From Armatimonadota bacterium (GTDB taxonomy: Bacteria; Armatimonadota; HRBIN16): 64,000 bases of DNA. Position 1 is the first letter of the stretch. Each line of letters opens with the position of its first letter. The notes below the pieces were generated by a model. That model was not told the DNA's origin. It made no database searches and was given only the letters and a program-made list of their open reading frames with translations. Below, piece after piece: positions 5,431 through 30,136 of this stretch. The stretch is taken from contig OY781964.1 in assembly GCA_963677485.1 (NCBI GenBank), forward strand, positions 1,760,001 through 1,824,000. The letters run 5' to 3'. A program made the translations under genes and the position numbers.

Positions 5431-5494
5431 GCAGGGGGCCTCCTCGATGATACACGATATGCTTAACGAGTCATTCGAGCCGGTAACCGGCGGC

Positions 5495-5812
5495 TCAGGG
5501 AGATACTCTAGATGGCACTTTGACAAAAGACATGACCACGAATACAAATAAACCTAGAAATCCGACCACCAGTGCTATGATCAGCCTCAAGATTGCTGCC
5601 CACCATTGCTTCTTTAGCAGGCACCGGATGGCAAACACGAACAACGCAATCGTCGATACAAACTGGACCAGCCCCAGAAGAAGACCAACTAATGATTGCA
5701 GTATGTTTAGATTGCTGTCCCACAGCGAAACCCATGTCACCATGGCGACGACTGGTACCAATACCTGCACCCAAAGCTTTTGTAGATACAGATTAAGCAC
5801 TTTCCGGATCAT
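5495..5812 (-). CDS. Small membrane protein (about 3 TM), unknown function
   Basis: 105-aa hydrophobic ORF with RBS GAGGTG. Confidence 0.6.
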   Translation of the reverse strand: MIRKVLNLYLQKLWVQVLVPVVAMVTWVSLWDSNLNILQSLVGLLLGLVQFVSTIALFVFAIRCLLKKQWWAAILRLIIALVVGFLGLFVFVVMSFVKVPSRVSP

Positions 5813-5956
5813 GGCTATGTCACCTCGTTTTCATCGCAGCTATGTATAGCTTATACGACGATGCCACCGGCGGTCGTTTCGCAGTTGGCGGTGGAGGATG
5901 TAAATCCGGCAGATCAGGTCGATCCGTCGGATGTCACTCACACGCCTCAAGCAGAT

Positions 5957-6886: not shown

Positions 6887-6903
6887 TGCTATGCCCTCTT
6901 ATT

Positions 6904-9396: not shown

Positions 9397-9674
9397 TAGA
9401 TTGGCCTCCGGAATGATGGATGCCATACCATTCGCCATCTTCAGGGTGATTCCCTGCGTGGGGGGAGGTTTGGCTCACGCGAAGGCGCGAAGGCGCGAAG
9501 GGTTGTCTCCGGGGCGGTCTGGCGGGTAGGGGGCGGGTTTCCCGATCCACACCAAGGGTTCAGGCATGCATGTGTTGTGTCGCGTCGGTTGTCAAAACTG
9601 CCGATTCGACGGATGGGACGAATCGGACCGATGGTCTGGCGTGGGGTGAACGATGTTCGCCCCCACCTCAGCCG

Positions 9675-14580: not shown

Positions 14581-15648
14581 CTAATCGACCTTCCGAATGA
14601 TCGCTTTGACCTTCCACATCTCACGAACTGCCTCGTCAGCACCAGGTAGCACGTGACTATATACGTCCAATGTGGTCTTGATGCTGTTGTGACCAAGACG
14701 GGCCGAAACCGCCGGTATGGTCATCCCGTGATGCAGAAGATAGCTGGCATGGGCATGCCGAAACATATGGGGATGGAACTCCACACCAATCGCCTCAGAT
14801 GCGATCTTGACCGCGTTTGATATGAGGGTGGAGTTATACGGATTGGACCGTCGTGACAACACATACAGGAACTTGCACTGCGATGCCAGGTAGTGTAATA
14901 CCTCGATCGCACCATCAGGCAGTGTGATAGTTCGTATGCTGCTCACTGTTTTCGGGGTGGTGATCTGACCCCGGGTATACTGCCGACTAACAGTCAATCT
15001 GCCCAGGTCGAAGTCAACATCACTCCACATCAAGCCGCACGCTTCACCCACGCGCAAGCCTGTATAATACAGAAGCTTACACCTGGCGGCCATCATCGGA
15101 CTGTGCTCATCTAGGAAGGCGATGATCCGCTCCGCATATTCGACCACCCTCTGGTCGACCTTCCGGGCGGACGCCGGCACCTTGATACCGTCCGTAGGTT
15201 TACGCAGTAGATAGCCACGTTCGATTGCCCAAGACGCCATGAGGCTTAATATGGTGATGCGGTGTTTGATAGTCGATGCTGCCATTCCGGCCTCAAGAGC
15301 AGCATCGACTACCTGCTGCACGATATCCCGGTTCAACTGAGACAGCCGTGTCGAAGGGAGTGCTCCCGCCCACATCCGGGTACCGCTCAACACATTATCA
15401 GCCGATGTCTTGCATATCCCCTTTTGATATTCGGTAAACCAGCTCTCAAACGCCTCAGCTACGGTCATTTTGGTGGCTGTAGGATGTACACCTCCGTCGA
15501 TCTGAACCAACAGGTCGCGTCGCCACCGGTTCAGTTCTGTCTTGCTGTCTGCTACATGGCTATAACTACGACCATGAACCATCAACCTGATCCGCAGCCG
15601 ACCATTCGGCATTCGTGATATGGTGCCTTCATGTTTATCGCGGCGCAT
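14581..15648 (-). CDS. int: Tyrosine recombinase/integrase
   Basis: YTGLRVGEACGL, TPKT, HMFRH, RLGH and T..VYSH catalytic motifs. Confidence 0.95.
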   Translation of the reverse strand: MRRDKHEGTISRMPNGRLRIRLMVHGRSYSHVADSKTELNRWRRDLLVQIDGGVHPTATKMTVAEAFESWFTEYQKGICKTSADNVLSGTRMWAGALPSTRLSQLNRDIVQQVVDAALEAGMAASTIKHRITILSLMASWAIERGYLLRKPTDGIKVPASARKVDQRVVEYAERIIAFLDEHSPMMAARCKLLYYTGLRVGEACGLMWSDVDFDLGRLTVSRQYTRGQITTPKTVSSIRTITLPDGAIEVLHYLASQCKFLYVLSRRSNPYNSTLISNAVKIASEAIGVEFHPHMFRHAHASYLLHHGMTIPAVSARLGHNSIKTTLDVYSHVLPGADEAVREMWKVKAIIRKVD

Positions 15649-15889
15649 GATGGGCCACCCTTCGCGATAATGCATAGTCGATTAAGTCTTTCCTGGCCAC
15701 TTTATACCCACGGCCGATTTTGAAGTGTGGCAGGTCACCGCGAACAATAGCGTCGCGTAGGTGCCTTGCGCTGCATTTCATGAATTCGGCAGCTTCAGTC
15801 AATGGCATCAGGTCAGGAAACTCAGGCGTGTCATCACGGATCACGGGTACATCCTTATGTATGTCGAATTTGATTGCAGGTCTACCCAT
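15635..15889 (-). CDS. Excisionase-like HTH_17 protein
   Basis: LTEAAEFMKCS......I..GDLP..KIGR.YKV; overlaps the int start. Confidence 0.8.
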   Translation of the reverse strand: MGRPAIKFDIHKDVPVIRDDTPEFPDLMPLTEAAEFMKCSARHLRDAIVRGDLPHFKIGRGYKVARKDLIDYALSRRVAHHAPR

Positions 15890-15890
15890 T

Positions 15891-16196
15891 TCACTCGACC
15901 TCCTTAAGTCGGCTAGCTAGGGAATCCAGAACGGATGTAATGGCGTTACGGAAGTCGAGCACACAGAGATCATGTTTAAAGCGTAACCACCCGAGAGCTT
16001 GCCGAAGGTTGTTTGTGTATATACCGTCCCTACATCCCAGTGGTTCACACGTATATACCGCCACGTATTTTGGCTTTGAACCTCCCATACCAAACCTCGC
16101 AGATATGGCAACATGTCCATTGAAAAAGCCAGGCGAGTGCGGTGATCTCAAAGTCCACACTAGATTGTTGTGTCGTCGTCTGCTTGCTCTACCCAT
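15891..16196 (-). CDS. Phage hypothetical protein
   Basis: RBS AAGGAGGAG before ATG 16196; in the leftward early operon. Confidence 0.55.
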   Translation of the reverse strand: MGRASRRRHNNLVWTLRSPHSPGFFNGHVAISARFGMGGSKPKYVAVYTCEPLGCRDGIYTNNLRQALGWLRFKHDLCVLDFRNAITSVLDSLASRLKEVE

Positions 16197-16499
16197 TCTT
16201 ATCTCCTCCTTAAATCTTGCCGGTGGCCCCGGCTTGTGTTCAAACCGGCGGGTTGAACGGGGCCACCTTCTCGCCGCTCCAACTGGAGCGCACGCCACGA
16301 CAACTCATTGCCGCACACGCCGCATATACCGCTGCCGTCCGGCATCAGATGCACGAAGGGCGACACACGCCCGCAACGGCCGCACCTGGTGTTATGGGCA
16401 ACCATCACCGGTCACCACGAAACAACGCATACCCCACACCCAGGCCGATGTAGAAGCAGACCACTCCGACCACCGCAATGGCCATGATCAACCTATCGA

Positions 16500-16712
16500 T
16501 CATCGGGATCGCCTCTTACCCACCGTGGCGGTCTCTAGCTCAGGTTCAACAGTGCCAGGTAGAGGCCGGTTCACCCGGCTCTCCATCTCGGCCACGATCT
16601 CGTCATACTCGCGCCTGGCGGTCTTCAGCTCCTCGGTCAACCGGGCGATATCAGCCTTCTTGCGTGCCCACATCTCCATCAACTCCACGGCCAACGTCTC
16701 CTTCGATATCAT
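16500..16712 (-). CDS. Phage hypothetical coiled-coil protein
   Basis: Heptad-rich; ATGA overlap with the upstream ORF. Confidence 0.6.
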   Translation of the reverse strand: MISKETLAVELMEMWARKKADIARLTEELKTARREYDEIVAEMESRVNRPLPGTVEPELETATVGKRRSR

Positions 16713-16924
16713 CGGACCGCCTCCAGCTCAAGCACCATCTGGCCTTCTATGTGCTGGCAGTTGGCGATGTGGTCCCGGACCGCGGTCATGACAGCCAGCT
16801 CTCGCTGGGCATCCTCCGGGCGCATTTCACCACGCTGCACACGCTTGCTGTATACGCCGTTGCGCATCTTCAACTCGCGGTTCAGGCAGCGCAGCATCTC
16901 TTCTCTGGTCACTCTTGGTTCCAT
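16709..16924 (-). CDS. Phage hypothetical protein
   Basis: RBS GGAGG; C..REL..R..VY...V..G.M....A.RE...M.AV pattern typical of small phage proteins. Confidence 0.6.
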   Translation of the reverse strand: MEPRVTREEMLRCLNRELKMRNGVYSKRVQRGEMRPEDAQRELAVMTAVRDHIANCQHIEGQMVLELEAVR

Positions 16925-16993
16925 AGTTCCTCCTGTATAATGGAGGTGGATGCTCCTAATCGTCCACCTCATGACGCCTGAGAACTGCAATTC

Positions 16994-17311
16994 TCAGGCG
17001 TTTTTGTCATTCCATACATATGGCAGTAACTCACCTGCCTGTGAGTATCCATCCAGTGCCTTTTGCGCGAGTTCACGGCTGGTGAACGAACGCGGCTCGC
17101 TAAACAGTTGAATGGCTAGCAGATGCTCATTGATCTTCGTGTCGTATAGCCAAACGCCCCAACGTTCGCTCTGGTCTCCACGCAGTATCGGATAGCGGTC
17201 CACTACAATGGCCAGGTCGCTACCCGCTCTGACGATATACCCACCTTCCGGGTGCCACGATAAATACTTGAGATCATCATCGGCAGAGGGGATAGGTTCT
17301 TGCTCGATCAT
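16994..17311 (-). CDS. Phage hypothetical protein
   Basis: ATGA overlap with the upstream ORF in the early operon. Confidence 0.55.
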   Translation of the reverse strand: MIEQEPIPSADDDLKYLSWHPEGGYIVRAGSDLAIVVDRYPILRGDQSERWGVWLYDTKINEHLLAIQLFSEPRSFTSRELAQKALDGYSQAGELLPYVWNDKNA

Positions 17312-17544
17312 ATTCCTGCCACCTGACGCTTACGCCAATTGGCCACCTCCTCAAGGACCTGCAAAGCCATCTCCTCGGCAGGAAGCATATCCAACAGCAT
17401 GTCCTTCTCAGGAACTCGGTCACGCATCACGCGGACGCGCAGCATGTCACCCTGCGGCTTTACGTTGATCTTCTGCTTGCTCATCGTGTGGCCACTATCT
17501 GGGCGGTCGCGGTCATCTGCCCACACAGATATGCGATGTTCCAT
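17308..17544 (-). CDS. Phage hypothetical protein
   Basis: Coupled ORF in the early operon. Confidence 0.5.
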   Translation of the reverse strand: MEHRISVWADDRDRPDSGHTMSKQKINVKPQGDMLRVRVMRDRVPEKDMLLDMLPAEEMALQVLEEVANWRKRQVAGI

Positions 17545-17859
17545 ATGATCACTGGAACCATAATGATGATGCCGGTCACCATCCAGTCAAGTATGTGTTC
17601 TAGCAGCGGCCTGCCTGGGTGCTGCTTCAGTCTCGGGCGCATTTCGTCTCCTCCTTGAATAGATTGTTGATGACGCGGTGTATGACAATGACATGCATGG
17701 CCAGCCGTAAAATCATCGGCATCTGGACCCGGTACACCTAATCGTTGATGACCAAGCCGAATGTACCATCGTCAGATGGTCCGCCAGACAGCGTGTGAAC
17801 ATCAATCACGTCATCCGGATGAACTTCCATCACGCTGCCGTCTTTGGTCTCTGTGTCAC

Positions 17860-18099
17860 TCATCGGTGGGCCTCCTCGTATATTGACATCACCTGCGGGC
17901 TCATCATAATGACATCGGTGGCGGATTTGTAGACATGGACGCATTGCTGGTTATTACCTATGGCGGGTTGGCCATCCACTGGCTTGATCTGCACCAATGT
18001 ATTCGTGGCTTGCAGGTATGCAATACACACCTCGACTGTTGGGAATGCTGTACGGGTAGCCCGGTGTTTCGAGTAGTCGTATGCGCCTATGATTTTCAT
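17860..18099 (-). CDS. Phage hypothetical protein
   Basis: ATG overlaps the cro stop (ATGA); RBS GGAGG. Confidence 0.55.
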   Translation of the reverse strand: MKIIGAYDYSKHRATRTAFPTVEVCIAYLQATNTLVQIKPVDGQPAIGNNQQCVHVYKSATDVIMMSPQVMSIYEEAHR

Positions 18100-18317
18100 T
18101 GTGTTGCCTCCTGTGTTTGTGCTGGCCATATTTCGGCCTCGGTTACACCTAGTGCCGCTGCGATTCGCTGGCGTATGACAGGCCCCGGAACATAACCATA
18201 ATTTTCGATCTGTTGCAGTGTCAACATGTTTGTGTCGGCTGCTGCGGCAAGTCCCATGCGGGTCAGATTTTGGCTAGTCCTGATGCTCCTCAGGTTGGTG
18301 TGATATCTGGGTTTCAT
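18096..18317 (-). CDS. Cro-like XRE HTH regulator
   Basis: NLRSIR...LT...LA......TLQQIEN...P.......IAAALGV...IW; RBS GGAGG; divergent from cI. Confidence 0.85.
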   Translation of the reverse strand: MKPRYHTNLRSIRTSQNLTRMGLAAAADTNMLTLQQIENYGYVPGPVIRQRIAAALGVTEAEIWPAQTQEATQ

Positions 18318-18415
18318 GCGACCTCCTATCAATATTGATGATACTTCATAGAATATACCATTGTTTCGTATATTTATACAACTATTATTACTAAATATCA
18401 TGCAAAAATAATAGT
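18318..18415. promoter_or_regulatory. Divergent cro/cI switch region
   Basis: Very AT-rich 98-bp spacer with the imperfect palindrome GTATATTTATAC (18368-18379). Confidence 0.7.
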
Positions 18416-19072
18416 ATGGAATCAAAACTACCAGACAGAATCTATAAGGCGGTGGCACACCGCGGGTTTCGGTCGCTCAGAGCAGCATCGAAAGCGTCAG
18501 GCGTCTCATACTCAACAATTAGCAGTTGGGTTCAGGGCGTAAGTAATCCATCGTCAGAGTTATTAGCACAGTTTTCCAAATCAATAGGAGTAGATATGGC
18601 GTATTTCACCGGGGATTTGACCCTGGACCAAGCATGTGAAGCGTTCGAGAACCGAAACCAGGTGTATGCGGTGGGTATACAACCTATGGTTAAGCTGCCA
18701 TACTGGAATGTACCAGCCGACCCATATAACGGCCGCACAGCCGATGTAGATGAGCCGGATGGTTATATCAGCTTCCCAGCAGATACCGGTGCTGACTTTG
18801 CGATCTGTGTTACTGGCATCTGTATGGAACCATCTATGCGTACCGGAGATTATGTGGGAATTCGGCGAACACCGGTCTGCAGCACCGGCGAAGTGGCGTT
18901 AATTGAAGTGCTTGAGACAGGCGATCGGATGATCAAGCGGTCGGTGATGCGGAAGGGGCGGCGGTTTTTTGCACCCGACAACGAGGACGCCGGGGAATAC
19001 GCCATCCCCGCAGAGGGATGCCGCGTGATCGGCGTGGGCGTTGCGCTTACGCGCGGTAAGGGCGGGTTGTAG
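18416..19072 (+). CDS. CI-like repressor (XRE HTH + S24 peptidase-like domain)
   Basis: SGVSYSTISSW..G...P HTH; FAICVTGICMEP...GDYV...IKR S24-like domain; no obvious RBS, possibly leaderless. Confidence 0.85.
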   Translation: MESKLPDRIYKAVAHRGFRSLRAASKASGVSYSTISSWVQGVSNPSSELLAQFSKSIGVDMAYFTGDLTLDQACEAFENRNQVYAVGIQPMVKLPYWNVPADPYNGRTADVDEPDGYISFPADTGADFAICVTGICMEPSMRTGDYVGIRRTPVCSTGEVALIEVLETGDRMIKRSVMRKGRRFFAPDNEDAGEYAIPAEGCRVIGVGVALTRGKGGL

Positions 19073-19078: not shown

Positions 19079-19603
19079 ATGAATAGTATTGTGGAGCATA
19101 TTATTGGATTTCTCAAGGAGCTTCCTGAACGGGCGATCTATATAGTGGTTGCGTTATTAGTGATCTATGCCTTCGCATATCATTCGCCTGATGACAAGGC
19201 ATCCATCATAATACTTGAGTATAGCAGCTGGATTAAGTACGGATGCTTGTTTCTATTCACTGTTTTCTCTTTGCCAGGTATAGTAAATTATGTATACAAA
19301 CGATGCATCATATATACCCTGAGTTGGGTCAGGGAGAGACGAAACGAGCGCAAGAACAGTCATATTAGAAGATTCGTTGCGGACCTTCCCATCGATCAAC
19401 GTTCGTTTCTAGCCAAGTTTGCGTTTGGAGCCAAATTAGTGATTTCCGTTGAGCACCGTATGATATCAACGCTTCACGAAAAATCGTTAATTAGGGTAGT
19501 AAACCCAAGTGACATTACCGATATATCTGTAGTATTTGAAGCAACAGACATAAGATATGCTAACTACGCTCGATATATGGTCACAAATCAAACAACCAAA
19601 TAA
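19079..19603 (+). CDS. Two-TM membrane protein, superinfection exclusion SieB-like
   Basis: Two TM segments then a cytoplasmic L...Q..FL..F...L..K.LI domain; directly downstream of cI; AT-rich. Confidence 0.5.
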   Translation: MNSIVEHIIGFLKELPERAIYIVVALLVIYAFAYHSPDDKASIIILEYSSWIKYGCLFLFTVFSLPGIVNYVYKRCIIYTLSWVRERRNERKNSHIRRFVADLPIDQRSFLAKFAFGAKLVISVEHRMISTLHEKSLIRVVNPSDITDISVVFEATDIRYANYARYMVTNQTTK

Positions 19604-19616
19604 TCACGATGCAAAG

Positions 19617-19685
19617 AGGAAGGGCCGCCGCTACTTCGTGCCCGACAACGAGGACGCCGGGGAATACGCCATACCCACCGAGGGC
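19617..19685 (+). pseudogene. Duplicated remnant of the cI 3' end
   Basis: Encodes RKGRRYFVPDNEDAGEYAIPTEG versus cI RKGRRFFAPDNEDAGEYAIPAEG; 32-bp exact match 19641-19672 = 18974-19005. Confidence 0.85.
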
Positions 19686-19810
19686 TTCGGTGTTAACTAC
19701 ATATTAGGTTGTTAAGTCCAGAATAAGTTGGGCAGACAAGAGTAGTTATAACAGTAGAGCTGAAGCAGCCACTGTATGACAAAATGTTGGAGTTAATGAG
19801 GATAATCAGA

Positions 19811-21220
19811 CTAAGACAAAGGATTGTAGTGTTGTAGAACACGCCTTATGCTAGGCGATAGTTCACAATCCGAAATGCCATGAAAAGTATTGTTACTTAT
19901 CAAGTGATCGACCATCTGCTTTTCATTGGTAGTTAAATCTGAATAGTTTTGCCACCACAGGTCAATCCTACCTTCTAACCTACATCGCTTTCTGTTGATG
20001 ATGTAGTATTCTGGCATCATTAGTATCTTGTTGAATTCCTTGATGTCTTGACCGAAAGCTTCTTCAAAGTAGCTCAACCTTGTCCCTACAACACCCTTAG
20101 TGCGTAACAACACACATTGGATCGCCCGAAGAGATTTACGATCCCAGTATTTACCAATGTTACCAGGTGTAGTGACTAGACGGTTTTTACTCATCAGGTT
20201 GATGTAGCGCATGGGAAATGAATATATCTGAAGCCCTAATTCTTCGTTGAGTTCAACATTCATGCGCATACGTTCATATAAATGTTCGGGTTGGTCGTCG
20301 TAGTTGAACAATAGGTAGTTGGAAAGATATACAAAACCGTGCTTAGCAGCTAACCTTATTTTCTCTTCATATAGTTTTCGATATGATATGTTGTCAAATG
20401 CAAGGCGTAATGGCTTCAAGGCGATTTCGCTAAGATAGCCCATTGAGATGTCTGTCAGTAATCGAATATCGATCCCTTGGTTGAAGTCTACATGCCTTTG
20501 GGCATGAATGACTCGGTCGCCTTTTGATCTGTAACGGAATACCGCATTTTTCGGAAATCCTAAGGACTTGATGTCACTGATGATCTCGAATAATCTATCT
20601 GAGGCAAGAACGTTGTTATCAAGTAATAACAGGTCCTTCTTGGGGCCATATAGTTCGGTTACTCGTTCAACTTGGTCTTTCAACGATAGATAATCCTTGT
20701 ATAATGGCTCTATCTGAGGCACGGCACAAAACGAACAACGCCGTATGCACCCTCGTGTCGCATACGCTATATATGCATTAGATGCTGGATAACAATACGC
20801 AATGTCATTCAATATACCGTAATCAGGCAGCATAGTTTCTACGATGTCATCGTCATCATATCCAAGCTTACCCTTTGTATCAAGTAGCCCTGACACTACG
20901 CGACATTTCACAGTCTGACGAATATCATCTGGCATCAGCGTAGCCAGCACACCACCAACAACAAGATTGTCGGCAATCGGTTCCTTAACACTTTCACCGT
21001 AATATCGTAATGCCTTGATTGTATGGGCCCAATCATATGTGAACAGACTGGCGATATATATGCGATCCCATCTCCATCGATCGCGATGACTGCTTGAGAG
21101 GCCTTTAACGAACTCCACATAATCGCCTTTTTCCTTGTGATACTGGGCGATTTTCATAAGACCTAGGGGCGGGAACTTGCTTCGATAACTTGGTTCAACC
21201 AGTAAAATAAAGCGGTTCAC
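19811..21220 (-). CDS. Radical SAM protein with B12-binding-like N-terminal domain
   Basis: TRGCIRRCSFC (CxxxCxxC), LLLDNNVL, VDFNQGID; N-terminal PPLGLMKIA...VGGVLATL. Confidence 0.85.
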   Translation of the reverse strand: MNRFILLVEPSYRSKFPPLGLMKIAQYHKEKGDYVEFVKGLSSSHRDRWRWDRIYIASLFTYDWAHTIKALRYYGESVKEPIADNLVVGGVLATLMPDDIRQTVKCRVVSGLLDTKGKLGYDDDDIVETMLPDYGILNDIAYCYPASNAYIAYATRGCIRRCSFCAVPQIEPLYKDYLSLKDQVERVTELYGPKKDLLLLDNNVLASDRLFEIISDIKSLGFPKNAVFRYRSKGDRVIHAQRHVDFNQGIDIRLLTDISMGYLSEIALKPLRLAFDNISYRKLYEEKIRLAAKHGFVYLSNYLLFNYDDQPEHLYERMRMNVELNEELGLQIYSFPMRYINLMSKNRLVTTPGNIGKYWDRKSLRAIQCVLLRTKGVVGTRLSYFEEAFGQDIKEFNKILMMPEYYIINRKRCRLEGRIDLWWQNYSDLTTNEKQMVDHLISNNTFHGISDCELSPSIRRVLQHYNPLS

Positions 21221-21242
21221 ATTCTTGACTCATTGTTCTTAT

Positions 21243-22262
21243 TTAACATAACGCACCGATTGTAGTTGGAAAGTGATTATCACATCGATCCCATTCACTG
21301 ATTTCTACGAATTTGTTAATGTAATAAGTGATGGTATCGCTTATTGAGAGGGTATCAAAATCTTCGTTAGGAAGTATACTAGAAATACTCACTAGTTGGT
21401 TGTTCTGTAGTTCAAACCGACTTGTACTCAAGAAATCAGTCAATGATTGGCAACTTGGCGGCAGAGGTTTGTCGATACCTGCGAATGAGCCTAGCATGGT
21501 ATATACTGCCATCTGACTCCGTGGTCCGCTAGTATACATGACAGTTGGAAGAAATAATGCAGTGATATTATTGCCGTCAAAGTATCGACTAAAAGTATGG
21601 TAAACAAACAAATCAAGCATTGGATGAGAGGCTTGAGTTTTATCTGAATAACATATCGGGTGGTCAGATTCAATGTATGATGCTACACTACGGCATTCAC
21701 CTGACAGATTTTTCATGAAGTTTGCCAGCGCATTTGTATGGATTTCATTGCGCACGGTCAGGAACGTTACAAATGGTTGACTGCGCTGTTCAACCGGTAA
21801 ATCAGTTTGACATTTAATTAAACATCTGATGGCTTCATACCGATGATTCTCGCTATTTTGATCATGGCCAGATATTGCTTGGCAAAAGTCAAGCTGGTAT
21901 AGCGTTACAAGATCATTCTGAACAAAGATCTTTCCGTTAAGATCTTGCTTATTGATCATGACTTCTTCGATCAAGCCAAAGTAGGTGTCGGATCGTATTT
22001 GATGTTTTAATCTTAGTTCCATAAGGTTCGCTTCTAGCATGTCGAGTGACCGTGTGTAATATTCGTCTTTATCTGGCTTTTCGAACGCACATACCCTTCC
22101 GATCATGTCAGTCCATTCGTGGATATCTTCAATATAAGGCCCGGGTAGACCAAGATAGAAATATTTACTTTTAATATGACATAACAATGTCTTAAGGATA
22201 GGTGTGCACCATTCGCTCCGGATGGTGTTCTTGCTTACACTACTCTTAAACGGTACCGTCAC
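21243..22262 (-). CDS. Uncharacterised protein, possible SAM-methyltransferase-like Rossmann fold
   Basis: YLGLPG...VCAFE...LDFC spacing; GTG start overlaps the ATPase stop (GTGA). Confidence 0.5.
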   Translation of the reverse strand: MTVPFKSSVSKNTIRSEWCTPILKTLLCHIKSKYFYLGLPGPYIEDIHEWTDMIGRVCAFEKPDKDEYYTRSLDMLEANLMELRLKHQIRSDTYFGLIEEVMINKQDLNGKIFVQNDLVTLYQLDFCQAISGHDQNSENHRYEAIRCLIKCQTDLPVEQRSQPFVTFLTVRNEIHTNALANFMKNLSGECRSVASYIESDHPICYSDKTQASHPMLDLFVYHTFSRYFDGNNITALFLPTVMYTSGPRSQMAVYTMLGSFAGIDKPLPPSCQSLTDFLSTSRFELQNNQLVSISSILPNEDFDTLSISDTITYYINKFVEISEWDRCDNHFPTTIGALC

Positions 22263-23857
22263 AGTTTATCCTCCATTGATGACAATAGACTTACTAACAC
22301 AGATTCATAAATGTCATGATCGACGTATGCCCTTATGATCTGATCGTCAATTTCTTTTATAAATGTGGCCATCGAAGGATTCGGCGATAAACCTAATTGG
22401 TCAACTACATCGAGTAAACTAGCAGGTGGTGCATCTCCATGTACCGACATACTGTTAGTTTGCAGCTGTTGCTGATTACGTATTTCTCTCAGAGTTGCAG
22501 ATACTTTACTATGACGTTTCGCTTTGTTGGTTCTGATCAACTCTGATATTTTGGATTCGATTGCCTTACAACGATCTTCAAAATCCGACAACTCCGTTAC
22601 CATGAGAGTTCTGAGTGTTTTTTTGTGCGACTGTACCCTCATCATTAACATAGTTAGTTCAAAGCTTGAACGTAGGAGCTTTTCCGAGTCTCCCTGAGAT
22701 CCCAGATATTGCTTCTCGATTTCATTGCAGGCATCTATAGCAGTTATCAGGACATCCTTAGCTTTACGTTCGTTTTGTAACTTATCAACTGCCTCTGAAA
22801 TATCTTTTGCTAGTTTGATCAAGAGTTGGTGGAATTTATCTCTGATCTGACTGGCTTCAAATTCATCACGAGCAGCATTTGGAAGTAACTCATCCAAGCT
22901 AACAATGACTTCGCCAGTAATTCTATCGAGAATTACCTTACGAGCAAAATACTGATAGGCATATGTTCTGCTGCCTATAGAAAAACCTTGCTTTTTGATT
23001 AATAACCCCCTAAGACTCTTGTTGATGAGCACATTGTTCGTGTCATTTGCGCAATACCAGCATATACCATAATGCCTGCTGGTATCTTTTACCTCAAGAA
23101 ATGCTGGTTTTTCACCTTCATTGTTGTTAAATATATCATTTGTATAGGGTCTGTAAACCATACGTGACGATCCATGTGACTCTATTGTAAAATTGATATT
23201 CTTTAAATTATACGAACTAAGTTTCGATTCTATTTCATCTTTCCATCGAAAATCCGGATTGAAAGGCAATGGTATAGATGACTGTATATACTCTTCAAGC
23301 CTCCTATCATCCTTAAGCCGGTCTCCCATGTCTGTCGACAATGATTTCATTACCACCATGGTCCCATGCATACTCATGAAATCCTCATTATCGTCTCCAA
23401 CCGTAATGGCCCTAGACATTACGGTTTCCAACCCTAGATCCCTTGGTTTTCCTTTCAGCATTTCTTTTTGTTCTTGAGCAATAAGGTCACGTATGAGTTT
23501 GAAGTCCATATCAACAACACTGCATCGATCGTCCATATCCCTGGTGTGTATGACTAGTCGATCGCATAGATGCAACGCACTGTATATTCCGATTCCACGA
23601 AAGCCTACTTGGGTTGTTGGGTTCTTACTGGACATTCCAAGCCGTATAGCTTGAGATGCCACATCTGGGCTCATTCCTGTCCCATTATCTATGACTACAA
23701 CAGAGTTTGACGTGATGATCACCTGTAGCTCAGTTGCACCTGCATCTATACCGTTTTGCGCATATTCACGAATTGCGTCGAACGGGTCGCGATATAGACC
23801 TAAAGTTAAAATAGGAAGTAACTCGGCCCCGATGTCAGTACTTTCGAATTTCCTCAT
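22259..23857 (-). CDS. GHKL (HSP90/MORC/MutL-like) ATPase
   Basis: REYAQNGIDA, IDNGTGMS, GFRGIG and GT.V motifs; LPNAARDEFE; coiled-coil C-terminus. Confidence 0.85.
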   Translation of the reverse strand: MRKFESTDIGAELLPILTLGLYRDPFDAIREYAQNGIDAGATELQVIITSNSVVVIDNGTGMSPDVASQAIRLGMSSKNPTTQVGFRGIGIYSALHLCDRLVIHTRDMDDRCSVVDMDFKLIRDLIAQEQKEMLKGKPRDLGLETVMSRAITVGDDNEDFMSMHGTMVVMKSLSTDMGDRLKDDRRLEEYIQSSIPLPFNPDFRWKDEIESKLSSYNLKNINFTIESHGSSRMVYRPYTNDIFNNNEGEKPAFLEVKDTSRHYGICWYCANDTNNVLINKSLRGLLIKKQGFSIGSRTYAYQYFARKVILDRITGEVIVSLDELLPNAARDEFEASQIRDKFHQLLIKLAKDISEAVDKLQNERKAKDVLITAIDACNEIEKQYLGSQGDSEKLLRSSFELTMLMMRVQSHKKTLRTLMVTELSDFEDRCKAIESKISELIRTNKAKRHSKVSATLREIRNQQQLQTNSMSVHGDAPPASLLDVVDQLGLSPNPSMATFIKEIDDQIIRAYVDHDIYESVLVSLLSSMEDKL

Positions 23858-24433
23858 GGCATTCCTCACTCATAGCATATGGTGCGATGCGGTATTGACG
23901 GTATCCAACTGTATGATACACTGGGCTAATACAGATATAGATTATAAACCAGCATACGTCATATTATCACCACATGCATATCTACGGTACAATTAGCGAG
24001 TATCCGTCTGAATGTTGTTGACTTCGAGTATGCGATTAACACATCGGATGATGATAACAATATGTCTGACACGAACTGCGTGTACTTCGGAGGAGCCCAT
24101 AAAACCAAACATACTGATAGGCTCAAGAATCAACATCAAATTTGTCCAAATGACTATATACCCACCAAATATCGAGAGATCACAGCATACCAAACATCGA
24201 CATGTCAATATACCAACTACAGGCGAGTTCGGATTCTAGCCAATTTGTTACATTAGTCGAGTATCATGATCCTTCGATCAGTAAAACATAGAGAAGTGTC
24301 ATTATATTGCGATAATATGGTTTGGTATGGAATTACTGTTCTTACCGGCATTAATAATACATACTCACATGATACATCCACAACTCTACTAGATTGTGTA
24401 ACAAATACCCAAAAGAGTTCATTCCCACCTCCC

Positions 24434-27262
24434 TCACCCCTGCCTGCACCTCACGCACCTACCCCCACCGGGTAGGCTGCGCTTCTGGCAGATCAACTTG
24501 CCCTGCTTGTTCCGCCGCAGCACCAGCGGGCCGACACGCTTCGACCAGTGGGCCACATGCAGCCCGCGGCTGTGCCACCAGAGCGGTGCCTCCTGGCACG
24601 GGTAGACCTGCGACACCGTAAGCGACGGCCGGAAATCCCAGCTACAGATGTCACCGGTCCAACCTACCAACTCCTGGCCGTCACGTAACAGTGAGTGGTC
24701 CAGGTAGTGCTTCCCGCCCGGGTTCATGGCCAGCAGAACGCCGTTCGTACCGGTGGCCACACTTTGCACCAGCGTCTCGCCAGCCTTCAACTCCACCGTG
24801 TCATTCGCAAGCCCCGCACCCACCGCACTGCCGTGCAGTATCGTGGCCACACGCAGCACCAGCTCGTCATCGCCCAGGTTGAACGGGTCATGTACCCCGG
24901 CGAACCAGTCTATCGCATCCGCCAGTGACTGCACCTTCGTGCTGCCCAACCCCAGAGCCGACTGCACCTGCGGGCTGGCGGTCCAGATCACACCGTGGCC
25001 ACCCCACCGGCAGCCTACTCCGGCTAGCACCCACTCATATACGCTGCCCGTCGCCGGGGTCGGGATGCTTACGCTCCAACCTGGCCAGCGTCGTAGCACC
25101 CCCACCGGAACGTCTGGAACACCAAACCGCCAGAGGTTGAACTCATGCTCCTCGACCACCTGAACCGCCACGCCGGTCACGATCTTGAGCTCCCAGGCGA
25201 AGATATCAAATTCACCGAGCTCCTCACTGACCAGGTGCGACGAGGTGCGGACTATGTCAAACGCCTCCAGGTTCGGCAGACCATCGCATACCCCAAGCAG
25301 CAGACGCCTCCGCCAGTGCTTACGCTGGGTGGTGTCCTCTTCGTTAAGCTGGTCATACCGCTCCTCGCGTATCCACTGGTTCAGTGGGGGAAGCAGCCAC
25401 ACTAGCGGCTCCGACTTACGAAACAGCTCCACGCTGCCCAGTATCCAGCCGTCACCGTCAGTGGTTGGTACCTCAACCTCAATCCACTCCGGAAGGGTTA
25501 CCCCGCTGAGGGTTCCATCGAGTGTGGGTTGTGGCCACCGGCTCAAGGTGTTTGGCCGCGCGAGCTCGCCATGGTTGCCGGTCGGCGGTGGGTTCCCACC
25601 TTCAGACACAAGCCCGGTGATGTCCGGCCTGGCCAGGTCTATCTCTATCGTGCCGTCCGCCTTCACCTTCGTGGTCCAGGTCTTTACCGCCAGGCTCGGG
25701 TTCTCCCAGCTCATCGTGGCGGGGTCCGGGTAGAGTGCAGCCAGGTTGTCTTGCTTGATCCGCACCGTTACTGTGTCGAGGGGTAGAGGCGTGTGGTCAC
25801 GCTTGAGGTTGATCCGCAGATAGCGGTAACCCGCGAAGGTAGGCCGCGGGGGACGGCTGGGGCTCTCGCCAAACTGCTCGGTGTCCCACTCTAGCGTGCG
25901 GCGCAAGGTCATGGCCACCGCCCCGGTGTCCGGCGTGATACGAGCAACCAACCCGTCCGGATCAAGGCTGCCGTGTGCGACCGTCCAGCGGCCGCAGGTG
26001 AGCGAACCCCCAGAGACCCAGGCACCAGATGCGAGTGTATAACCATCCTCCGCCCAGCCTAAGCCAAGCGAGCTCATCGCCGCATGTGATAGAGTCGGGC
26101 CATCGACCGCCCACAGGTGCATCAGCATCCGGTTATCCTGCCAGGTTCGGTATGGCAGGTAGTCGCTCCAATCCTCCGGCAGATCGTGGTATTCGTTGGC
26201 CAGGCTCCATACCGGGTTCAGCCCGACCGACAGATCGCCCCAGTTCGACCAGGTGCCGCCGTCCGAAAAACGGCCCGTCCCGCTGCTGGCGTTGAAACTC
26301 CAGAACCACATCCGCTGCGTGATGCCTTCCGCATAATAACCGTCAGTGGCTGCGACGATGGGCAGGGCGGTGTCGTTGCCGTGTCTGCTGACCGCAAGCT
26401 CCGAAGGTATCCCGCCGCCCGCAGGGTTGAGCACCGCGCAGGTGATGGACACCTCACGCGTCAGGTGCCAGCCGCCCGCCATGACCGTGGTCATGCTTGC
26501 ACCACCGCTGGTCGGAGTGGCTCTGCCCACAAGGTGGCCGTCACCCAGCTCCCCACTGCAGGTACCGCCGCTATAACTCCATGTTGGTGATGCACCGTCG
26601 CAGTGGTAATGACCGTTCGAGCAGATGATATTCACCCGCCCCTCGGCGGTCTGTGTGCCAGCGATCGCCGTCACTGTGGCACTGGCGTGCAGCTCGTTTG
26701 GTAGGTCAGCCCCTACCGTGCCGCAGGTGCCGGTATAGGTGCCGATGTTGGTGACGAGCGTCCAGGTGGCCAGCTCCCGTAGCCGAAGCCACAACCTGCA
26801 CTTGGTGCGGTCTGGTGTATCCCTCTGAAAGCCCCGGTGATGGAAGCCCACAAAGCCCGCGCCGTCACCCTCACCCATGGTCAGCATGTCCGCCATCACG
26901 TCACATGGCGCACTGAACGTCAGTGAGCCCGCGTGGGGCTGGGTATGGACACCCTCCGGCAGACCAAACCGGATACTCATCGTGGCCCACTCCGCCGGTG
27001 CTGGTTGTCCGCTCGGGTAGGTCAGGGTGTAGTCGAATGGCAACTGGTCAGTATGTGGCCAGCTCACATCCGGGTATGCCCCCGCCGTGATGTTACCAAC
27101 CGAAAAAGCACCCACAGAAAGCGGAGTGGTGGCCGATAGCGACCCATTGGCGGTGATGCGGGAATGCAGGAATGGCATGAAGTTATCCCTGTAGACCTCA
27201 ATCTTCGCCGCGTGGTAGAACTGAATGGTCCAGGTGACGGTCTGTTCATCGATCTTTATCAT
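24434..27262 (-). CDS. Large phage tail-tip / host-recognition protein
   Basis: 942-aa G/T/W-rich ORF at the end of the tail operon; ATGA coupling. Confidence 0.6.
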   Translation of the reverse strand: MIKIDEQTVTWTIQFYHAAKIEVYRDNFMPFLHSRITANGSLSATTPLSVGAFSVGNITAGAYPDVSWPHTDQLPFDYTLTYPSGQPAPAEWATMSIRFGLPEGVHTQPHAGSLTFSAPCDVMADMLTMGEGDGAGFVGFHHRGFQRDTPDRTKCRLWLRLRELATWTLVTNIGTYTGTCGTVGADLPNELHASATVTAIAGTQTAEGRVNIICSNGHYHCDGASPTWSYSGGTCSGELGDGHLVGRATPTSGGASMTTVMAGGWHLTREVSITCAVLNPAGGGIPSELAVSRHGNDTALPIVAATDGYYAEGITQRMWFWSFNASSGTGRFSDGGTWSNWGDLSVGLNPVWSLANEYHDLPEDWSDYLPYRTWQDNRMLMHLWAVDGPTLSHAAMSSLGLGWAEDGYTLASGAWVSGGSLTCGRWTVAHGSLDPDGLVARITPDTGAVAMTLRRTLEWDTEQFGESPSRPPRPTFAGYRYLRINLKRDHTPLPLDTVTVRIKQDNLAALYPDPATMSWENPSLAVKTWTTKVKADGTIEIDLARPDITGLVSEGGNPPPTGNHGELARPNTLSRWPQPTLDGTLSGVTLPEWIEVEVPTTDGDGWILGSVELFRKSEPLVWLLPPLNQWIREERYDQLNEEDTTQRKHWRRRLLLGVCDGLPNLEAFDIVRTSSHLVSEELGEFDIFAWELKIVTGVAVQVVEEHEFNLWRFGVPDVPVGVLRRWPGWSVSIPTPATGSVYEWVLAGVGCRWGGHGVIWTASPQVQSALGLGSTKVQSLADAIDWFAGVHDPFNLGDDELVLRVATILHGSAVGAGLANDTVELKAGETLVQSVATGTNGVLLAMNPGGKHYLDHSLLRDGQELVGWTGDICSWDFRPSLTVSQVYPCQEAPLWWHSRGLHVAHWSKRVGPLVLRRNKQGKLICQKRSLPGGGRCVRCRQG

Positions 27263-27708: not shown

Positions 27709-28577
27709 TCCGGTAACTCGCCAGGTGGATCATCACCCGCTTTAACCGGGATACCAAGCAGCGTGGCCATGTCCACCGCTGCGTACTTCTTCACGGCCTC
27801 CGGACCAATCGGTGTGTCCCACGCCCCCTCACCAGCGGGGCCAGCCACATAGACTGGCGTGCCGATAAGTTTCTGGTCGGTGGTGTAGTCATCTTTACCC
27901 GCGTCCTTGTCTTGCCAGAACCGCTCGCGTCCATCGGCGGTTCTGGCTTGCAGTGGTTCACGCCACTCCTCATTCCAGTTGCGTTTTCGCATCCCGAAGG
28001 TGAAGATCACCTTGCTGTATTCGAATGCGCCTGTGAACGGGTCATACTTGGTGTCCTGCGAGACGTCCTGAAGCAGCAGCCGACCGACATTCACCCCCCG
28101 GAATACACGGTCATTGATACAGCCGATACAGGCCATGAGCATCGCAGACCGGTCCACTACCTGACGCATGGTTAACTGCAGGTCACCGCTAAATTCTGGC
28201 ATGGAAATATCCTGCGTCACCTTTGTGCTGGCGGTCTCCCACGTCCAGCCGATGAGCTTCTGGCCGCTCTCAAGACGGCCTCGCAGGTTCTCCTCAACCC
28301 ACTCTTCGGCATTCTCTTTAAGGTCCTGGCTGGTGCTATACTGGGCAGTGATGCGGGCTATCATGCCCTCGGCGGTTTGTGCGATCTGCCTGTGTGACAG
28401 GTTGACGATCCGCAGGATAGGCATGTCCGGCCACCCGTCACCCTTGACCGGAAAGCCGCGCATATACGGGTCATAATCGGGTTCTATCTCATCCCATAGC
28501 ACCGTCCAACTGCGCTGCGCGGTGAGACCATTACCGCTGACTTCCACATTACGGCTGGCAATATCCTCGGCAAACAT
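27705..28577 (-). CDS. Phage tail protein following the tape measure (distal-tail position)
   Basis: TAATG coupling to the TMP; beta-rich. Confidence 0.55.
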   Translation of the reverse strand: MFAEDIASRNVEVSGNGLTAQRSWTVLWDEIEPDYDPYMRGFPVKGDGWPDMPILRIVNLSHRQIAQTAEGMIARITAQYSTSQDLKENAEEWVEENLRGRLESGQKLIGWTWETASTKVTQDISMPEFSGDLQLTMRQVVDRSAMLMACIGCINDRVFRGVNVGRLLLQDVSQDTKYDPFTGAFEYSKVIFTFGMRKRNWNEEWREPLQARTADGRERFWQDKDAGKDDYTTDQKLIGTPVYVAGPAGEGAWDTPIGPEAVKKYAAVDMATLLGIPVKAGDDPPGELPE

Positions 28578-30136
28578 TAGGCAGTCACCACCGGTAGACG
28601 GCTCGCCTCTACCGCCCGCATGATACGCAGCACCGCTTCCTTTATGTCACGGATGTGAGCCACAAGCTCTGTGCTGCCTGGCAGAGACCCTGAAGACTGC
28701 AGGGCGTTCATGCTCTGTGGGGCTCCGGCGATGCTCGCTGCTGCCGTAGACAGCTTCGATGTGTCAGGCATACTGTAGCTTGGCAGGGCTGTTGGTTGGA
28801 CATCCGGCATACTCATGGTGGCTTCGGCTGACTTCCTGACCTTGTCGAGGTTGGATTTACCCCCTATACCAGCCAACTGTTTATCGACATCAGAGTTTTC
28901 CTTCTTGTGAGTACTGTTGTATATGGCCACCCCGGCAGCAGCGATACCTACGGCAGCCAACGCCACACCAGCCGCAGCAGGGTTGGCCGCGGCCCAGGCG
29001 ATGATCGCACTGTTTCTCATCATGTCAAAAGCGCTCCGGATGGCCATGATCCCCTTGGCCACAGGCCCGGCGACGGCCACCAGACCCAAGAACCCGATCA
29101 CCCCCGCTGCGATGGGTTTAGGCATCGCGGTCAGCACGCCAATGATTGGTTTAGCGATGTCTATGAGCATATCAAGGGCAGGCATCACAGCATCGGCGAT
29201 CGATAGAGCGAGCTCACCGAACTTCATCTTTACCCCAGCCAGCTTCGCGTTCATCGCATCGAACTTCTCGTCCATCTTGGCAGCCGCGACTAACACTTCG
29301 TCATTCATCACCGCCCCGCTCTTGTGTGCTTCGGTAGCCAGGTTGGTAAACCCCTGGGCACCCATGGCGATGATAGGGGCCATCTCGGCAGACGACTTAC
29401 CAAACAGCTTTGTGGCCAGGTTGTTGCGCTCGATACCCTCCGGCATCTGACCAAGTGCCCCGATGGTCTCAGAGAAGATACTGTTCATATCCCGGAACTT
29501 GCCGTTGCTGTCAAGCACCGAAACGCCGATACCTTTGAGCTGCTGTTGTATAGCCTCGTTACCGAGGTTCTTCTGCAGCTTTTCGACCGACTTCATGAGG
29601 GGCTCGAACTCCAACCCGCTTTGAGAGGCCACGAACTGCAGCTCCTGGAGGGTCTGTGTGGTCAACCCTGTGGCCGTCTTAAGGTTCATCAGCTTCTCAG
29701 CCTGGTCAGCCATTTTGCTGGCCTCATATAGTCCTGCACCGACCGCCGCAGCCAGAGGGGCTTGCACGCTTGAGGAGACACTAGATAGCTTATCGAGCTT
29801 CTGGTTCTTCTGGGCCTTGGCGATGGCCAGGTCCTTCTCCTGATTGGAGATCTCTTTACGCAGGCTGGCCGACTGGCTCCGCAGTGCGTTAAGGGTCTCC
29901 TTCTCGCCGGACTGCAGAGCCTGTTCTATCTTCTTTTTAAGCTCAACCTGCTCGTTCTGCATCTGCTGCAGCTTTTTGGTGGCCTCGGTGATGCCTCTTG
30001 TGTCCGGACGAATTGATGTCAAGCGTTCCGCAAGCCGCCCGTTGGCTTCAGCCTGCTTCTTCATCTCGTTCATAGACTTCTGGAAGCTCTGCAGACTAGC
30101 AGTGATCGCCAGTTCATAGGCACCTACACTAGGCAT
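28577..30136 (-). CDS. Tail tape measure protein
   Basis: Ala/Leu-rich helical; TG.T...LQEL, A..LFGKS..E..P and hydrophobic AANP segments; follows the chaperones. Confidence 0.88.
   Translation of the reverse strand: MPSVGAYELAITASLQSFQKSMNEMKKQAEANGRLAERLTSIRPDTRGITEATKKLQQMQNEQVELKKKIEQALQSGEKETLNALRSQSASLRKEISNQEKDLAIAKAQKNQKLDKLSSVSSSVQAPLAAAVGAGLYEASKMADQAEKLMNLKTATGLTTQTLQELQFVASQSGLEFEPLMKSVEKLQKNLGNEAIQQQLKGIGVSVLDSNGKFRDMNSIFSETIGALGQMPEGIERNNLATKLFGKSSAEMAPIIAMGAQGFTNLATEAHKSGAVMNDEVLVAAAKMDEKFDAMNAKLAGVKMKFGELALSIADAVMPALDMLIDIAKPIIGVLTAMPKPIAAGVIGFLGLVAVAGPVAKGIMAIRSAFDMMRNSAIIAWAAANPAAAGVALAAVGIAAAGVAIYNSTHKKENSDVDKQLAGIGGKSNLDKVRKSAEATMSMPDVQPTALPSYSMPDTSKLSTAAASIAGAPQSMNALQSSGSLPGSTELVAHIRDIKEAVLRIMRAVEASRLPVVTA

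Follow-up and report, generated by a model that had tools for sequence, protein, structure and literature searches.

A cassette of three genes was found on the minus strand of a 64,000-nucleotide (nt) stretch of an Armatimonadota bacterium genome (contig OY781964.1). This whole stretch is called the window here, and coordinates given without a locus label are positions in it. Open reading frame (ORF) calling in the window identified three ORFs, all intact and on the minus strand, at 22259-23869, 21243-22262, and 19811-21220, coding for a GHKL ATPase, a 339-amino-acid protein with a predicted class I S-adenosylmethionine (SAM) methyltransferase fold, and a 469-amino-acid radical SAM enzyme, respectively. 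The stop of the first ORF and the start of the second shared a 4-nt overlap (GTGA), and a gap of 22 nt (21221-21242) separated the second from the third. The ATPase gene had an ATG at 23857, six bases after GAGGA (532 amino acids), and an alternative upstream GTG at 23869 (536 amino acids); the ATG is the likelier start, which gives the gene the coordinates 22259-23857. The G+C content in 500-nt intervals was 0.386-0.442 over 19500-24499, compared with 0.608-0.654 at 24500-26999 and 0.464-0.588 at 16000-18999. An AT-rich non-coding region of 576 nt at 23858-24433 preceded the genes on the same strand, with a G+C content of 0.442 and 0.418 in its two intervals, and is presumed to be the promoter region of the cassette. 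An earlier sequence-only reading of this DNA had described tight linkage of the three genes, a composition more AT-rich than the phage backbone, and an AT-rich upstream region belonging to the genes, and all three descriptions were confirmed. The cassette is tentatively regarded here as belonging to a hitherto undescribed group of restriction-modification (RM)-like systems, of which it would be a compact version carried by a prophage; these systems are arranged around one very conserved radical SAM enzyme.

The ATPase domain of the first protein covered about residues 1-130. Pfam HATPase_c_3 matched residues 30-126 at 6.9e-13 with 49.2 bits against a cut-off of 25, and a profile built from eight family members matched HtpG (2.5e-13) and MutL (7.6e-8) in the PDB, with both matches confined to the first ~130 positions. 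These matches placed the protein among the ATPases with the GHKL N, G1, and G2 boxes. Conservation reached about residue 335 and included a middle region with G-E-(V/I)...P-N...R-D-x-F-E around residues 315-333, and charged residues were abundant in the C-terminal part, which was variable. Weak matches to BbrUII/HgiDII (5e-7), Tiamat TmtA (1.4e-7), MzaB, and sacsin-type proteins were confined to the ATPase domain and lay far below the family cut-offs. Tiamat TmtA, a GHL ATPase of more than 1000 amino acids with a C-terminal PD-(D/E)xK DUF3883 nuclease, was rejected as an assignment, as the match spanned residues 35-104 of a 1370-position model and the protein of the window has 532 amino acids and matches no nuclease family. 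No nuclease family was found in any of the three cassette proteins with Pfam, NCBIfam, PADLOC, or PHROGs.

The middle protein was modelled with AlphaFold2 from 70 relatives, with a predicted local distance difference test (pLDDT) score of 93.0 and a predicted template modelling (pTM) score of 0.91. Foldseek returned at least 500 matches to the model at E<=0.001, and all those listed were methyltransferases, with E-values down to 1.1e-6. On VIA-align the best matches were the Trm1 chains 3axt_A (Z 13.8, root-mean-square deviation 4.0, 224 residues aligned) and 2dul_A (Z 11.9), followed by lmo1582 (a putative class I methyltransferase), TYW2, and an RsmD-like protein at Z 11.3-11.7, and 214 chains aligned at Z>=8. 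The predicted structure places the protein in the class I SAM methyltransferase fold. Eight residues (K11, R15, Y36, D46, W50, G96, D125, and Y243) were invariant in the 70 relatives, and a further seven (G38, P40, A59, F60, L124, F126, and C127) were at least 90% conserved. One strand at 34-38 was followed by G38/P40, a second at 54-61 ended in the consensus residue E61, and a third at 121-129 ended in D125/F126/C127. In our own reading of the model, these positions would correspond to the SAM loop, the acidic residue of beta-2, and the D-F after beta-4, as in nucleic-acid N-methyltransferases.

By sequence, the middle protein stood apart from the catalogued families. There was no Pfam family at E<=0.1 and no PADLOC match, DNA methylase families included, and a search of the PDB gave nothing at E<=10. 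Membership in the Trm1 family was rejected, since identity to the Trm1 chains was 7-10% and Pfam was negative; the likeness is structural only. NCBIfam NF047698 (PP_RS20740) matched residues 96-188 only, at 2.9e-5 and 23.5 bits against a cut-off of 200, and the nearest ESM Atlas clusters carried PF28273 PP_RS20740 (score 0.96). On these matches the protein is judged to be related only distantly to the uncharacterised PP_RS20740 family and to fall outside it. A total of 120 relatives at E<=0.001 were found among 1.84 billion representatives. The gene was rare, being present at 2 of 80 genome loci of the partner survey described below and in 3 of 401 genomes of a phylum sample, the genome of the window included, and it was absent from the other 17 of 18 species genomes in the family of the host. 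No match was obtained by tblastn in plasmids or phages, and none was seen in viral contigs or, with a hidden Markov model, at 80 viral loci. A partial match (4.2e-13) was seen in a 175-amino-acid ORF of genome G328 (L094).

The third protein was modelled with a pLDDT of 86.9 and a pTM of 0.82. The model contained an N-terminal cobalamin-type Rossmann domain at about residues 1-125, a barrel carrying C158-x3-C162-x2-C165, and helices in the C-terminal part. The three cysteines were invariant in 20 relatives and at least 95% conserved in 74, and the CxxxCxxC motif held the only conserved cysteines of the protein. This motif and the predicted barrel, a fold common to the solved enzymes, place the protein in the radical SAM superfamily; Pfam Radical_SAM (PF04055) matched at 1.9e-5 with 25.4 bits, under its cut-off of 29.5, and phrog_9298 matched at 3e-44. 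Structural matches on VIA-align were AprD4 (Z 17.3), MgmA (17.1), MiaB (15.2), RimO (14.8), TsrM (13.9), and OxsB (13.0), and residues 1-124 aligned to cobalamin-binding domains at Z 8.3-10.8. The PDB gave nothing by sequence at E<=0.01, and there was no curated family above cut-off in NCBIfam (June 2026) or PADLOC 2.0. The MiaB/RimO methylthiotransferases were rejected, as the second-cluster cysteines were missing and the NCBIfam matches (E 0.02-0.09) covered the motif only, and so was the prokaryotic viperin (pVip), with no PADLOC match at E<=0.1. TcmP, which is methyltransferase-like and accompanies a different radical SAM family, was dropped with no NCBIfam match at E<=0.1. A complex prediction of the radical SAM enzyme with the middle protein scored 0.00 against a mark of 0.32, a result that counts neither way.

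Most of what the sequence-only reading had said of the three proteins held. The GHKL motifs, the Rossmann-like protein with YLGLPG, AFE, and LDFC (motif positions conserved in the relatives, fold modelled), the CxxxCxxC radical SAM protein, and the lack of a nuclease motif all agreed with the results above, and the models support its proposal of two SAM-using enzymes, one of class I methyltransferase fold and one of radical SAM fold with an N-terminus like a cobalamin domain. Its label "B12-type" held at the level of the fold and failed by sequence, where the Pfam B12-binding family had no match to the enzyme. Its comparison with viperins found no support in PADLOC. In the host genome no cobJ/cbiH match was obtained and three other proteins with a B12-binding domain were found above cut-off, and cobalamin is therefore probably taken up by the host.

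The radical SAM enzyme belonged to a large and widespread family. Relatives at E<=0.001 numbered 5176 among 7997 candidates scored, and the best was 69% identical. A total of 589 of 600 pattern matches were confirmed in species-representative genomes and 532 of 577 in viral contigs. Across 74 sequences from many phyla, 71 positions were at least 95% conserved. Variation was limited to one loop, a short insert, and the C-terminal ~50 residues (after ~420), and there was no variable recognition domain.

Partner genes were surveyed with our own ORF calls and neighbour clustering on the best 80 of the 589 genome loci, and L-numbers are the labels of surveyed loci. A same-strand ORF lay within 350 nt upstream of the radical SAM gene at 72 of the 76 loci that had at least 600 nt upstream, and the ORFs downstream, found at 32 of 72 loci, were heterogeneous and formed no large shared family. 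Restriction-like operons of at least seven different types carried the enzyme, and its gene was usually the last conserved one in them. The 74 full-length rows used for labelling and for the tree included the gene of the window and its paralog and left out L002 (a duplicate of L003), ORFs shorter than 380 amino acids, and split genes. Their partner labels were Pbe (26), DpdB-like (18), ParB-like (11), GHKL (7), other (4), BglII-like (3), HerA-like (3), and PD-Lambda-5_A (2). A quick maximum-likelihood tree from IQ-TREE required 26 changes of partner type against a minimum of 7, and sister pairs with different partners were seen, such as L045 (BglII type) and L013 (Pbe type). These 26 label changes indicate that the radical SAM enzyme moves between systems.

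Each operon type had its own set of components. The Pbe type was made up of a ~710-amino-acid protein with a sigma-70 region-4-like helix-turn-helix (HTH), PbeA (4.9e-223), PbeC (7.5e-177), and a PbeD/DndE-like gene. Its first protein was an extra one of ~625-741 amino acids (L006 12-2237, L008, L026, L031, L037, L039, L075, and others), whose N-terminus matched sigma-70 region 4 and, weakly, MzaA, and most of which was without a match. The 14 ORFs of this size scanned upstream of PbeA were either HTH proteins or matchless, and none was a methylase or DndC. The DpdB-like and ParB-like types contained ParB-like genes, a 135-amino-acid protein, a ZorD/DpdE-like SNF2 helicase (3.1e-64), a DGQHR protein like DpdB (1.5e-36), and sometimes a metallo-beta-lactamase fold. 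The HerA type carried HerA-like and BrxC/D-like ATPases, the PD-Lambda-5 type carried PD-Lambda-5_A (2.9e-60), and the GHKL type carried the ATPase family of the cassette. HNH and metallo-beta-lactamase-fold genes were also found among the partners.

The BglII type took the form of two-gene islands in which a 290-amino-acid protein with a BglII-like endonuclease (Endonuc-BglII, 7.5e-11) was followed by the radical SAM enzyme (L073 6125-9186, L045 2325-4425, L024, L057, and L036 6101-8311). A PHP-domain gene came after the island of L073. The islands of L073 and L036 lay amid housekeeping genes, and there was no DNA methylase in the 22 other ORFs scanned there. At L051, a type II methylase stood beside PD-Lambda-5_A and the radical SAM enzyme. 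The Cas type was represented by one divergent member (34% identical) at L068 4122-9588, where type IV Csf1 (Cas8, 1.8e-66), Cas11 (1.7e-25), Cas7 (2.3e-89), and Cas5 (2e-35) were followed by the overlapping radical SAM gene; the cluster mate in L054 of the second following gene carried Radical_SAM_N2 and Radical_SAM. A search of the 15 kb of this locus for a repeat array was negative, and neither Cas6 nor DinG was among the ORFs scanned. A CysH-like gene is usual in type IV-B modules, and L068 looks like a type IV-B-like module with the radical SAM gene in the place of the CysH-like one.

Short relatives of the enzyme were found at 56 of the 80 viral loci kept (L109-L174). They had 289-346 amino acids, were 26-32% identical over about the first 300 residues, and appear to be the phrog_9298 family. 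Some of them belonged to Bacteroides LoVEphage-like phages, where they are annotated as "radical SAM domain protein". In the few neighbourhoods of short relatives that were viewed, the only match to a partner cluster was one opposite-strand ParB-like ORF (c1) at L118. At L089 5992-9818 (Marinitoga camini virus 1), a 360-amino-acid relative, 31% identical over residues 5-379, adjoined an annotated HerA helicase and a NurA-like exonuclease on the opposite strand, an arrangement that echoes the HerA-linked version.

The order of GHKL ATPase, middle protein, and radical SAM enzyme recurred at three other distinct places, and was held there at 35-56% protein identity in other organisms. These were L004, in a genome of the same phylum as that of the window; L044, in a Bacillota metagenome-assembled genome in which the ATPase gene was in two ORFs; and L085/L086, two metagenome contigs with the same proteins. 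The upstream neighbour at L085 was a gamma-glutamyltransferase, which indicates that the trio stands alone there too. L084, with an IS1182 transposase before the middle gene and a contig end 52 nt after it, was neutral with respect to the trio. In three cases, a relative of the middle protein and one of the radical SAM enzyme had longest contigs of equal length (4367, 143522, and 3258), which hints at further pairs.

The ATPase family accompanied the radical SAM enzyme more widely. It was present at 5 of the 80 genome loci, and among the 14 closest viral loci (L095-L108) it adjoined the enzyme at 10, five times after it and five times before it; at four of the latter five, the ATPase followed a HerA-like gene. 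Twelve plasmid records from rhizobia, Novosphingobium, and relatives contained a full-length radical SAM enzyme (41-42% identical), with a preceding DGQHR gene annotated in nine. Two of these records were viewed in detail and had the order DGQHR gene, radical SAM gene, and "ATP-binding protein", the last matching the ATPase of the window with 27% identity over 376 residues (3e-27) in one and 23% over 385 residues (9e-21) in the other. A second system in the genome of the window (L003, G000:C1:2944000-2963000) had a radical SAM enzyme 42% identical to that of the window and the order unknown 376-amino-acid gene, HerA-like ATPase, GHKL ATPase, and radical SAM, with ORFs at 3983-5113, 5117-6796, 6807-7301, 7327-8862 (minus strand), 8877-9998, and 9999-11372. 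Its ATPase gene was split into parts of 164 and 373 amino acids by a 1.5-kb insertion holding a 511-amino-acid minus-strand ORF without a match in Pfam, PADLOC, or NCBIfam. The relatives with a GHKL ATPase usually had, in addition, a HerA-like ATPase and one more gene (L003, L081, L103, L104, L106, and L108). Conservation centres on the radical SAM enzyme, which members of this ATPase family often accompany, and the trio is a rare variant. The conservation of the trio in a defence context, which the sequence-only reading had put forward for checking, was in this way found in part: the order recurs but is rare, and it is the radical SAM enzyme, not the trio, that recurs in operons of defence components.

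The cassette lay in a prophage, with a cI-like repressor gene on one side and the tail genes on the other. Prophage genes in the window were an integrase (14581-15675), a cI-like HTH and S24 repressor (18416-19072), a tape measure (28577-30136), a major head (37962-39152), a portal (39754-41043), and a large terminase (44393-46138), near which a conventional, orphan-looking DNA methyltransferase was encoded on the minus strand (47550-48473, phrog_56, 1.4e-67). On the plus strand at 19618-19693, directly past the stop of the radical SAM gene and at the left border of the AT-rich island, there was a relic of the 3' end of the repressor gene, a 76-nt direct repeat 80% identical to 18951-19026; a 52-amino-acid ORF at 19557-19715 repeated the C-terminal residues of the repressor. 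The position of this relic just past the third gene shows that the AT-rich block adjoins a mosaic junction. The cassette is AT-rich foreign DNA at a prophage mosaic junction, and its DNA gave no matches in E. coli genomes or phage records. Between the repressor end and the relic was the plus-strand gene of a 174-amino-acid membrane protein (19079-19603) with a weak match to the superinfection-exclusion (SieB)-related phrog_1301 (5.7e-4), and this bracketed gene looks like a moron insertion or a swap of the immunity region. The other neighbour of the cassette was a 942-amino-acid ORF (24434-27262) without a PHROG match. Of the moron position that had been read between the tail end and the immunity region, the repressor side was confirmed and the tail end is given by position only. 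Upstream of the cassette, a sigma-70-like site was found at 23970-23941 (10 of 12 matches); the promoter scan gave 14 sites against 16.6 expected from shuffles, and the terminator scan was also not above chance.

Comparison with known systems showed partial likeness to several. PADLOC gave no match for the middle protein and the radical SAM enzyme and only short, weak ATPase-domain matches for the first, in keeping with the statement of the sequence-only reading that no named system has this composition. None of the three cassette proteins matched the signature proteins of PbeABCD, Dnd, Dpd, PD-Lambda-5, or type IV CRISPR-Cas in PADLOC, and the trio also lacks the endonuclease and DNA methylase families of a type II RM system. 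Many relatives of the radical SAM enzyme are like Dpd (the 7-deazaguanine DNA modification-restriction system, DpdA-K) in standing beside a DGQHR protein that matches DpdB (PADLOC 1.5e-36; NCBIfam 1e-34) and a DpdE/ZorD-like SNF2 protein, and the logic would also be alike, with a DNA-modifying enzyme and an NTPase helper beside helicase and nuclease genes. In Dpd systems DpdB is paired with a DNA-modifying enzyme. Unlike in Dpd, the DpdA transglycosylase and DpdC were not seen and the radical SAM enzyme was in their place, and the trio has no Dpd proteins at all. The phosphorothioation-based Dnd/Pbe systems (DndABCDE with DndFGH or with PbeABCD, the PbeABCD ones being anchored on CxC-ABC/DndE) are approached by the 26 of 74 family members that follow full-length PbeA, PbeC, and a PbeD/DndE-like gene, but neither DndA nor DndC was among the operon ORFs scanned, and the trio has no Pbe or Dnd gene. 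According to the published reports, Pbe depends on phosphorothioation by DndCDEA (PMC6459918), other CxC-ABC/DndE systems have cytosine methylases and phosphorothioation genes as partners (PMC10853773), and the self label in Dnd and Pbe is a DNA mark made by neighbouring genes (PMC6459918, PMC10853773). In PMC10853773 the term "radical SAM" was used only in discussing DndC, and PD-lambda-5 is described in PMC9519451 as a compact RM and abortive infection (Abi) system with a methyltransferase.

RM systems linked to GHKL/MORC ATPases (BbrUII/HgiDII, Tiamat) share the ATPase superfamily with the cassette. A preprint reports such ATPases beside methyltransferases, helicases, and nucleases (10.64898/2026.09.30.754977). 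These systems differ from the cassette in their fused nuclease, which is absent here, and in the partner, here a radical SAM enzyme, a class that appears in the preprint in the reference list only (10.64898/2026.09.30.754977). The class B radical SAM enzymes and AprD4 have the three-part architecture and fold of the third protein, at the Z-scores given above, but identity is 12-18% and they serve biosynthesis (sugars, peptides, small molecules), not defence-like operons; AprD4, the best structural match, has the same N-terminal domain but is a dehydratase, not a methylase. The pVips are also radical SAM enzymes in an anti-phage setting; unlike the family described here, they are without the N-terminal Rossmann domain and act alone, whereas the operons here are multi-gene and DNA-directed. 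The HXS system, in which a radical SAM maturase acts on a peptide effector as reported in PMC13128918, is a different matter. No literature describing this radical SAM family in defence was found, although subscription papers and the supplementary tables of screens could hold one. By analogy, the system would work most like Dpd and Dnd/Pbe, with a non-methyl mark on DNA from neighbouring genes, an NTPase helper, and exchangeable nucleases, and it also resembles the GHKL-linked RM sets. It belongs to none of these, since the cassette lacks their signature proteins.

The strongest clue to function is one of substitution. In the loci studied the usual modification genes were missing and the radical SAM enzyme was present instead, and in the Pbe-type and BglII-type loci scanned it occupied the place of the modification enzyme. 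An endonuclease would be hard to keep without a protecting enzyme, and the radical SAM enzyme is therefore read as the marking component. The silence of PADLOC, the folds, the recurrence of the trio, and the operons of defence components all support the earlier proposal of a candidate new defence or DNA-modification system. The explanation that we lean towards, without strong commitment, is an RM-like module in which the radical SAM enzyme, assisted here by the Trm1-like methyltransferase, would mark DNA in a non-canonical way, with the ATPase as the component that engages DNA. We infer that DNA would be the substrate, that the mark would act as a self label, and that the module may protect against phages. 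The radical SAM enzyme would use the 5'-deoxyadenosyl radical, with or without cobalamin, to set a non-canonical covalent mark, and would itself have no target-recognition domain. The Trm1-like methyltransferase would supply a second (N-methyl) step or the recognition of the target. The GHKL ATPase would provide ATP-driven engagement of DNA, loading or opening it for the two enzymes and discriminating unmarked incoming DNA. As the trio is without a nuclease, restriction would need a host factor or occlusion of DNA by the ATPase, or may be absent. In the other operons, the DGQHR protein, the CxC-ABC protein with DndE, or the HerA-like or GHKL ATPase would guide or assist the radical SAM enzyme. 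A more far-reaching proposal, made with greater reserve, is that the radical SAM enzyme is a new kind of DNA-modifying enzyme and places a radical-chemistry mark, such as a C-methyl or other C-H functionalisation of a base or sugar, by which at least seven unrelated restriction machineries (Pbe, Dpd-like, BglII-like, HerA-like, PD-Lambda-5, type IV Cas, and GHKL) could recognise self DNA, and that in the trio it could act with the Trm1-like N-methyltransferase and the ATPase in a two-step hypermodification.

Several observations weigh against this explanation. The restriction arm is missing from the trio, which is nuclease-free. The conservation of the radical SAM enzyme without a variable recognition domain is unlike that of sequence-specific DNA methylases, and a small universal substrate such as a nucleotide would suit it equally. 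The Cas-linked member at L068 needs no self-marking, and action on target DNA would be more natural there. The methylase at L051 and the methyltransferase-fold gene of the trio itself mean that the radical SAM enzyme does not always take the place of a methylase. Among the best structural matches, AprD4 acts on a sugar, MgmA on a protein, MiaB on tRNA, and RimO on a ribosomal protein, and none acts on DNA. The partner labels, finally, come from our own ORF calls and clustering at the best 80 of 589 loci.

The arguments for DNA modification would apply equally to a cassette that only modifies, hypermodifying prophage and host DNA against other restriction systems or tuning expression, with an ATPase that only loads the enzymes and with no restriction arm. 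Shielding DNA modification is familiar from phage-borne orphan methylases and from Mu Mom, and a nuclease-free trio in a prophage that already has an orphan-looking DNA methyltransferase would suit this role, as would the short viral relatives with their single opposite-strand partner match at L118. Nearly all full-length members, however, stand beside nucleases, helicases, or Cas modules, which argues for a discriminating system, and the usual addition of a HerA-like ATPase and a further gene to the GHKL-bearing relatives tells in the same direction; modification alone is considered unlikely. The radical SAM enzyme might instead be the effector, brought to invading DNA or activated by infection, and might damage or block DNA by radical chemistry or make a nucleotide chain terminator by dehydration of the AprD4 or viperin type. 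Its best structural match is a diol dehydratase, a universal small substrate or chemistry independent of sequence would agree with its extreme conservation and its lack of a recognition domain, its divergent member follows a type IV Cas effector module without array, Cas6, or DinG, and PbeABCD is reported to block replication without visible DNA degradation (PMC6459918). Set against these points, most partner sets already hold a nuclease (PbeA HKD, BglII-like, HNH, or metallo-beta-lactamase fold), so that a second effector would be unneeded, and known systems vary their effectors and keep their sensors, whereas here the radical SAM enzyme stays and the rest varies. With the viperin models of PADLOC unmatched, and with an endonuclease-fold gene that has no methylase nearby being more readily understood if the adjacent enzyme protects the DNA of the host, an effector role is judged rather improbable.

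A substrate other than DNA was also weighed, either RNA (tRNA or rRNA modification) or protein (maturation of a partner protein), with an indirect link to DNA-directed defence. The nearest structural matches of the middle protein are tRNA and rRNA methyltransferases (Trm1, TYW2, RsmD-like, and TrmM), and the radical SAM enzyme resembles MiaB, RimO (which act on tRNA and ribosomal protein S12), and MgmA (which acts on a protein). Against this stand the DNA-directed partners (DndB/DpdB-like, ParB-like, CxC-ABC with its DndE cognate, SNF2, HKD, BglII-like, and HNH), which are too varied to offer a common protein substrate, and the three invariant cysteines, which do not include the second cluster of the methylthiotransferases; such a substrate is very doubtful. 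That the three genes are chance neighbours or a decaying remnant without joint function would agree with the chance-level promoter and terminator scans and with the interrupted ATPase gene of the second system in the same genome, but the three frames are intact and overlap or lie 22 nt apart, their order is held in other organisms at the identities given above, and the catalytic motifs are intact, which makes this explanation extremely unlikely.

If the RM-like explanation is correct, the DNA marking of RM-like systems would not be limited to methyl transfer, phosphorothioation, and deazaguanine exchange, and radical SAM chemistry would be added to these; the chemistry of the mark, if the mark exists, would be categorically new. 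It would explain the Pbe-type and Dpd-like sets that are without the usual modification genes and the role of this bacterial ATPase family of the Hsp90/MutL type, and it would offer a possible recruit for a type IV-B-like Cas module. A new mark on DNA would be relevant to sequencing-based epigenomics too, and useful as an enzymatic tool. The cassette of three genes and the two-gene islands of endonuclease and radical SAM enzyme are small, directly testable units. The recurrence of this radical SAM enzyme beside varied restriction-like gene sets suggests an undescribed chemical marking or attack of DNA.

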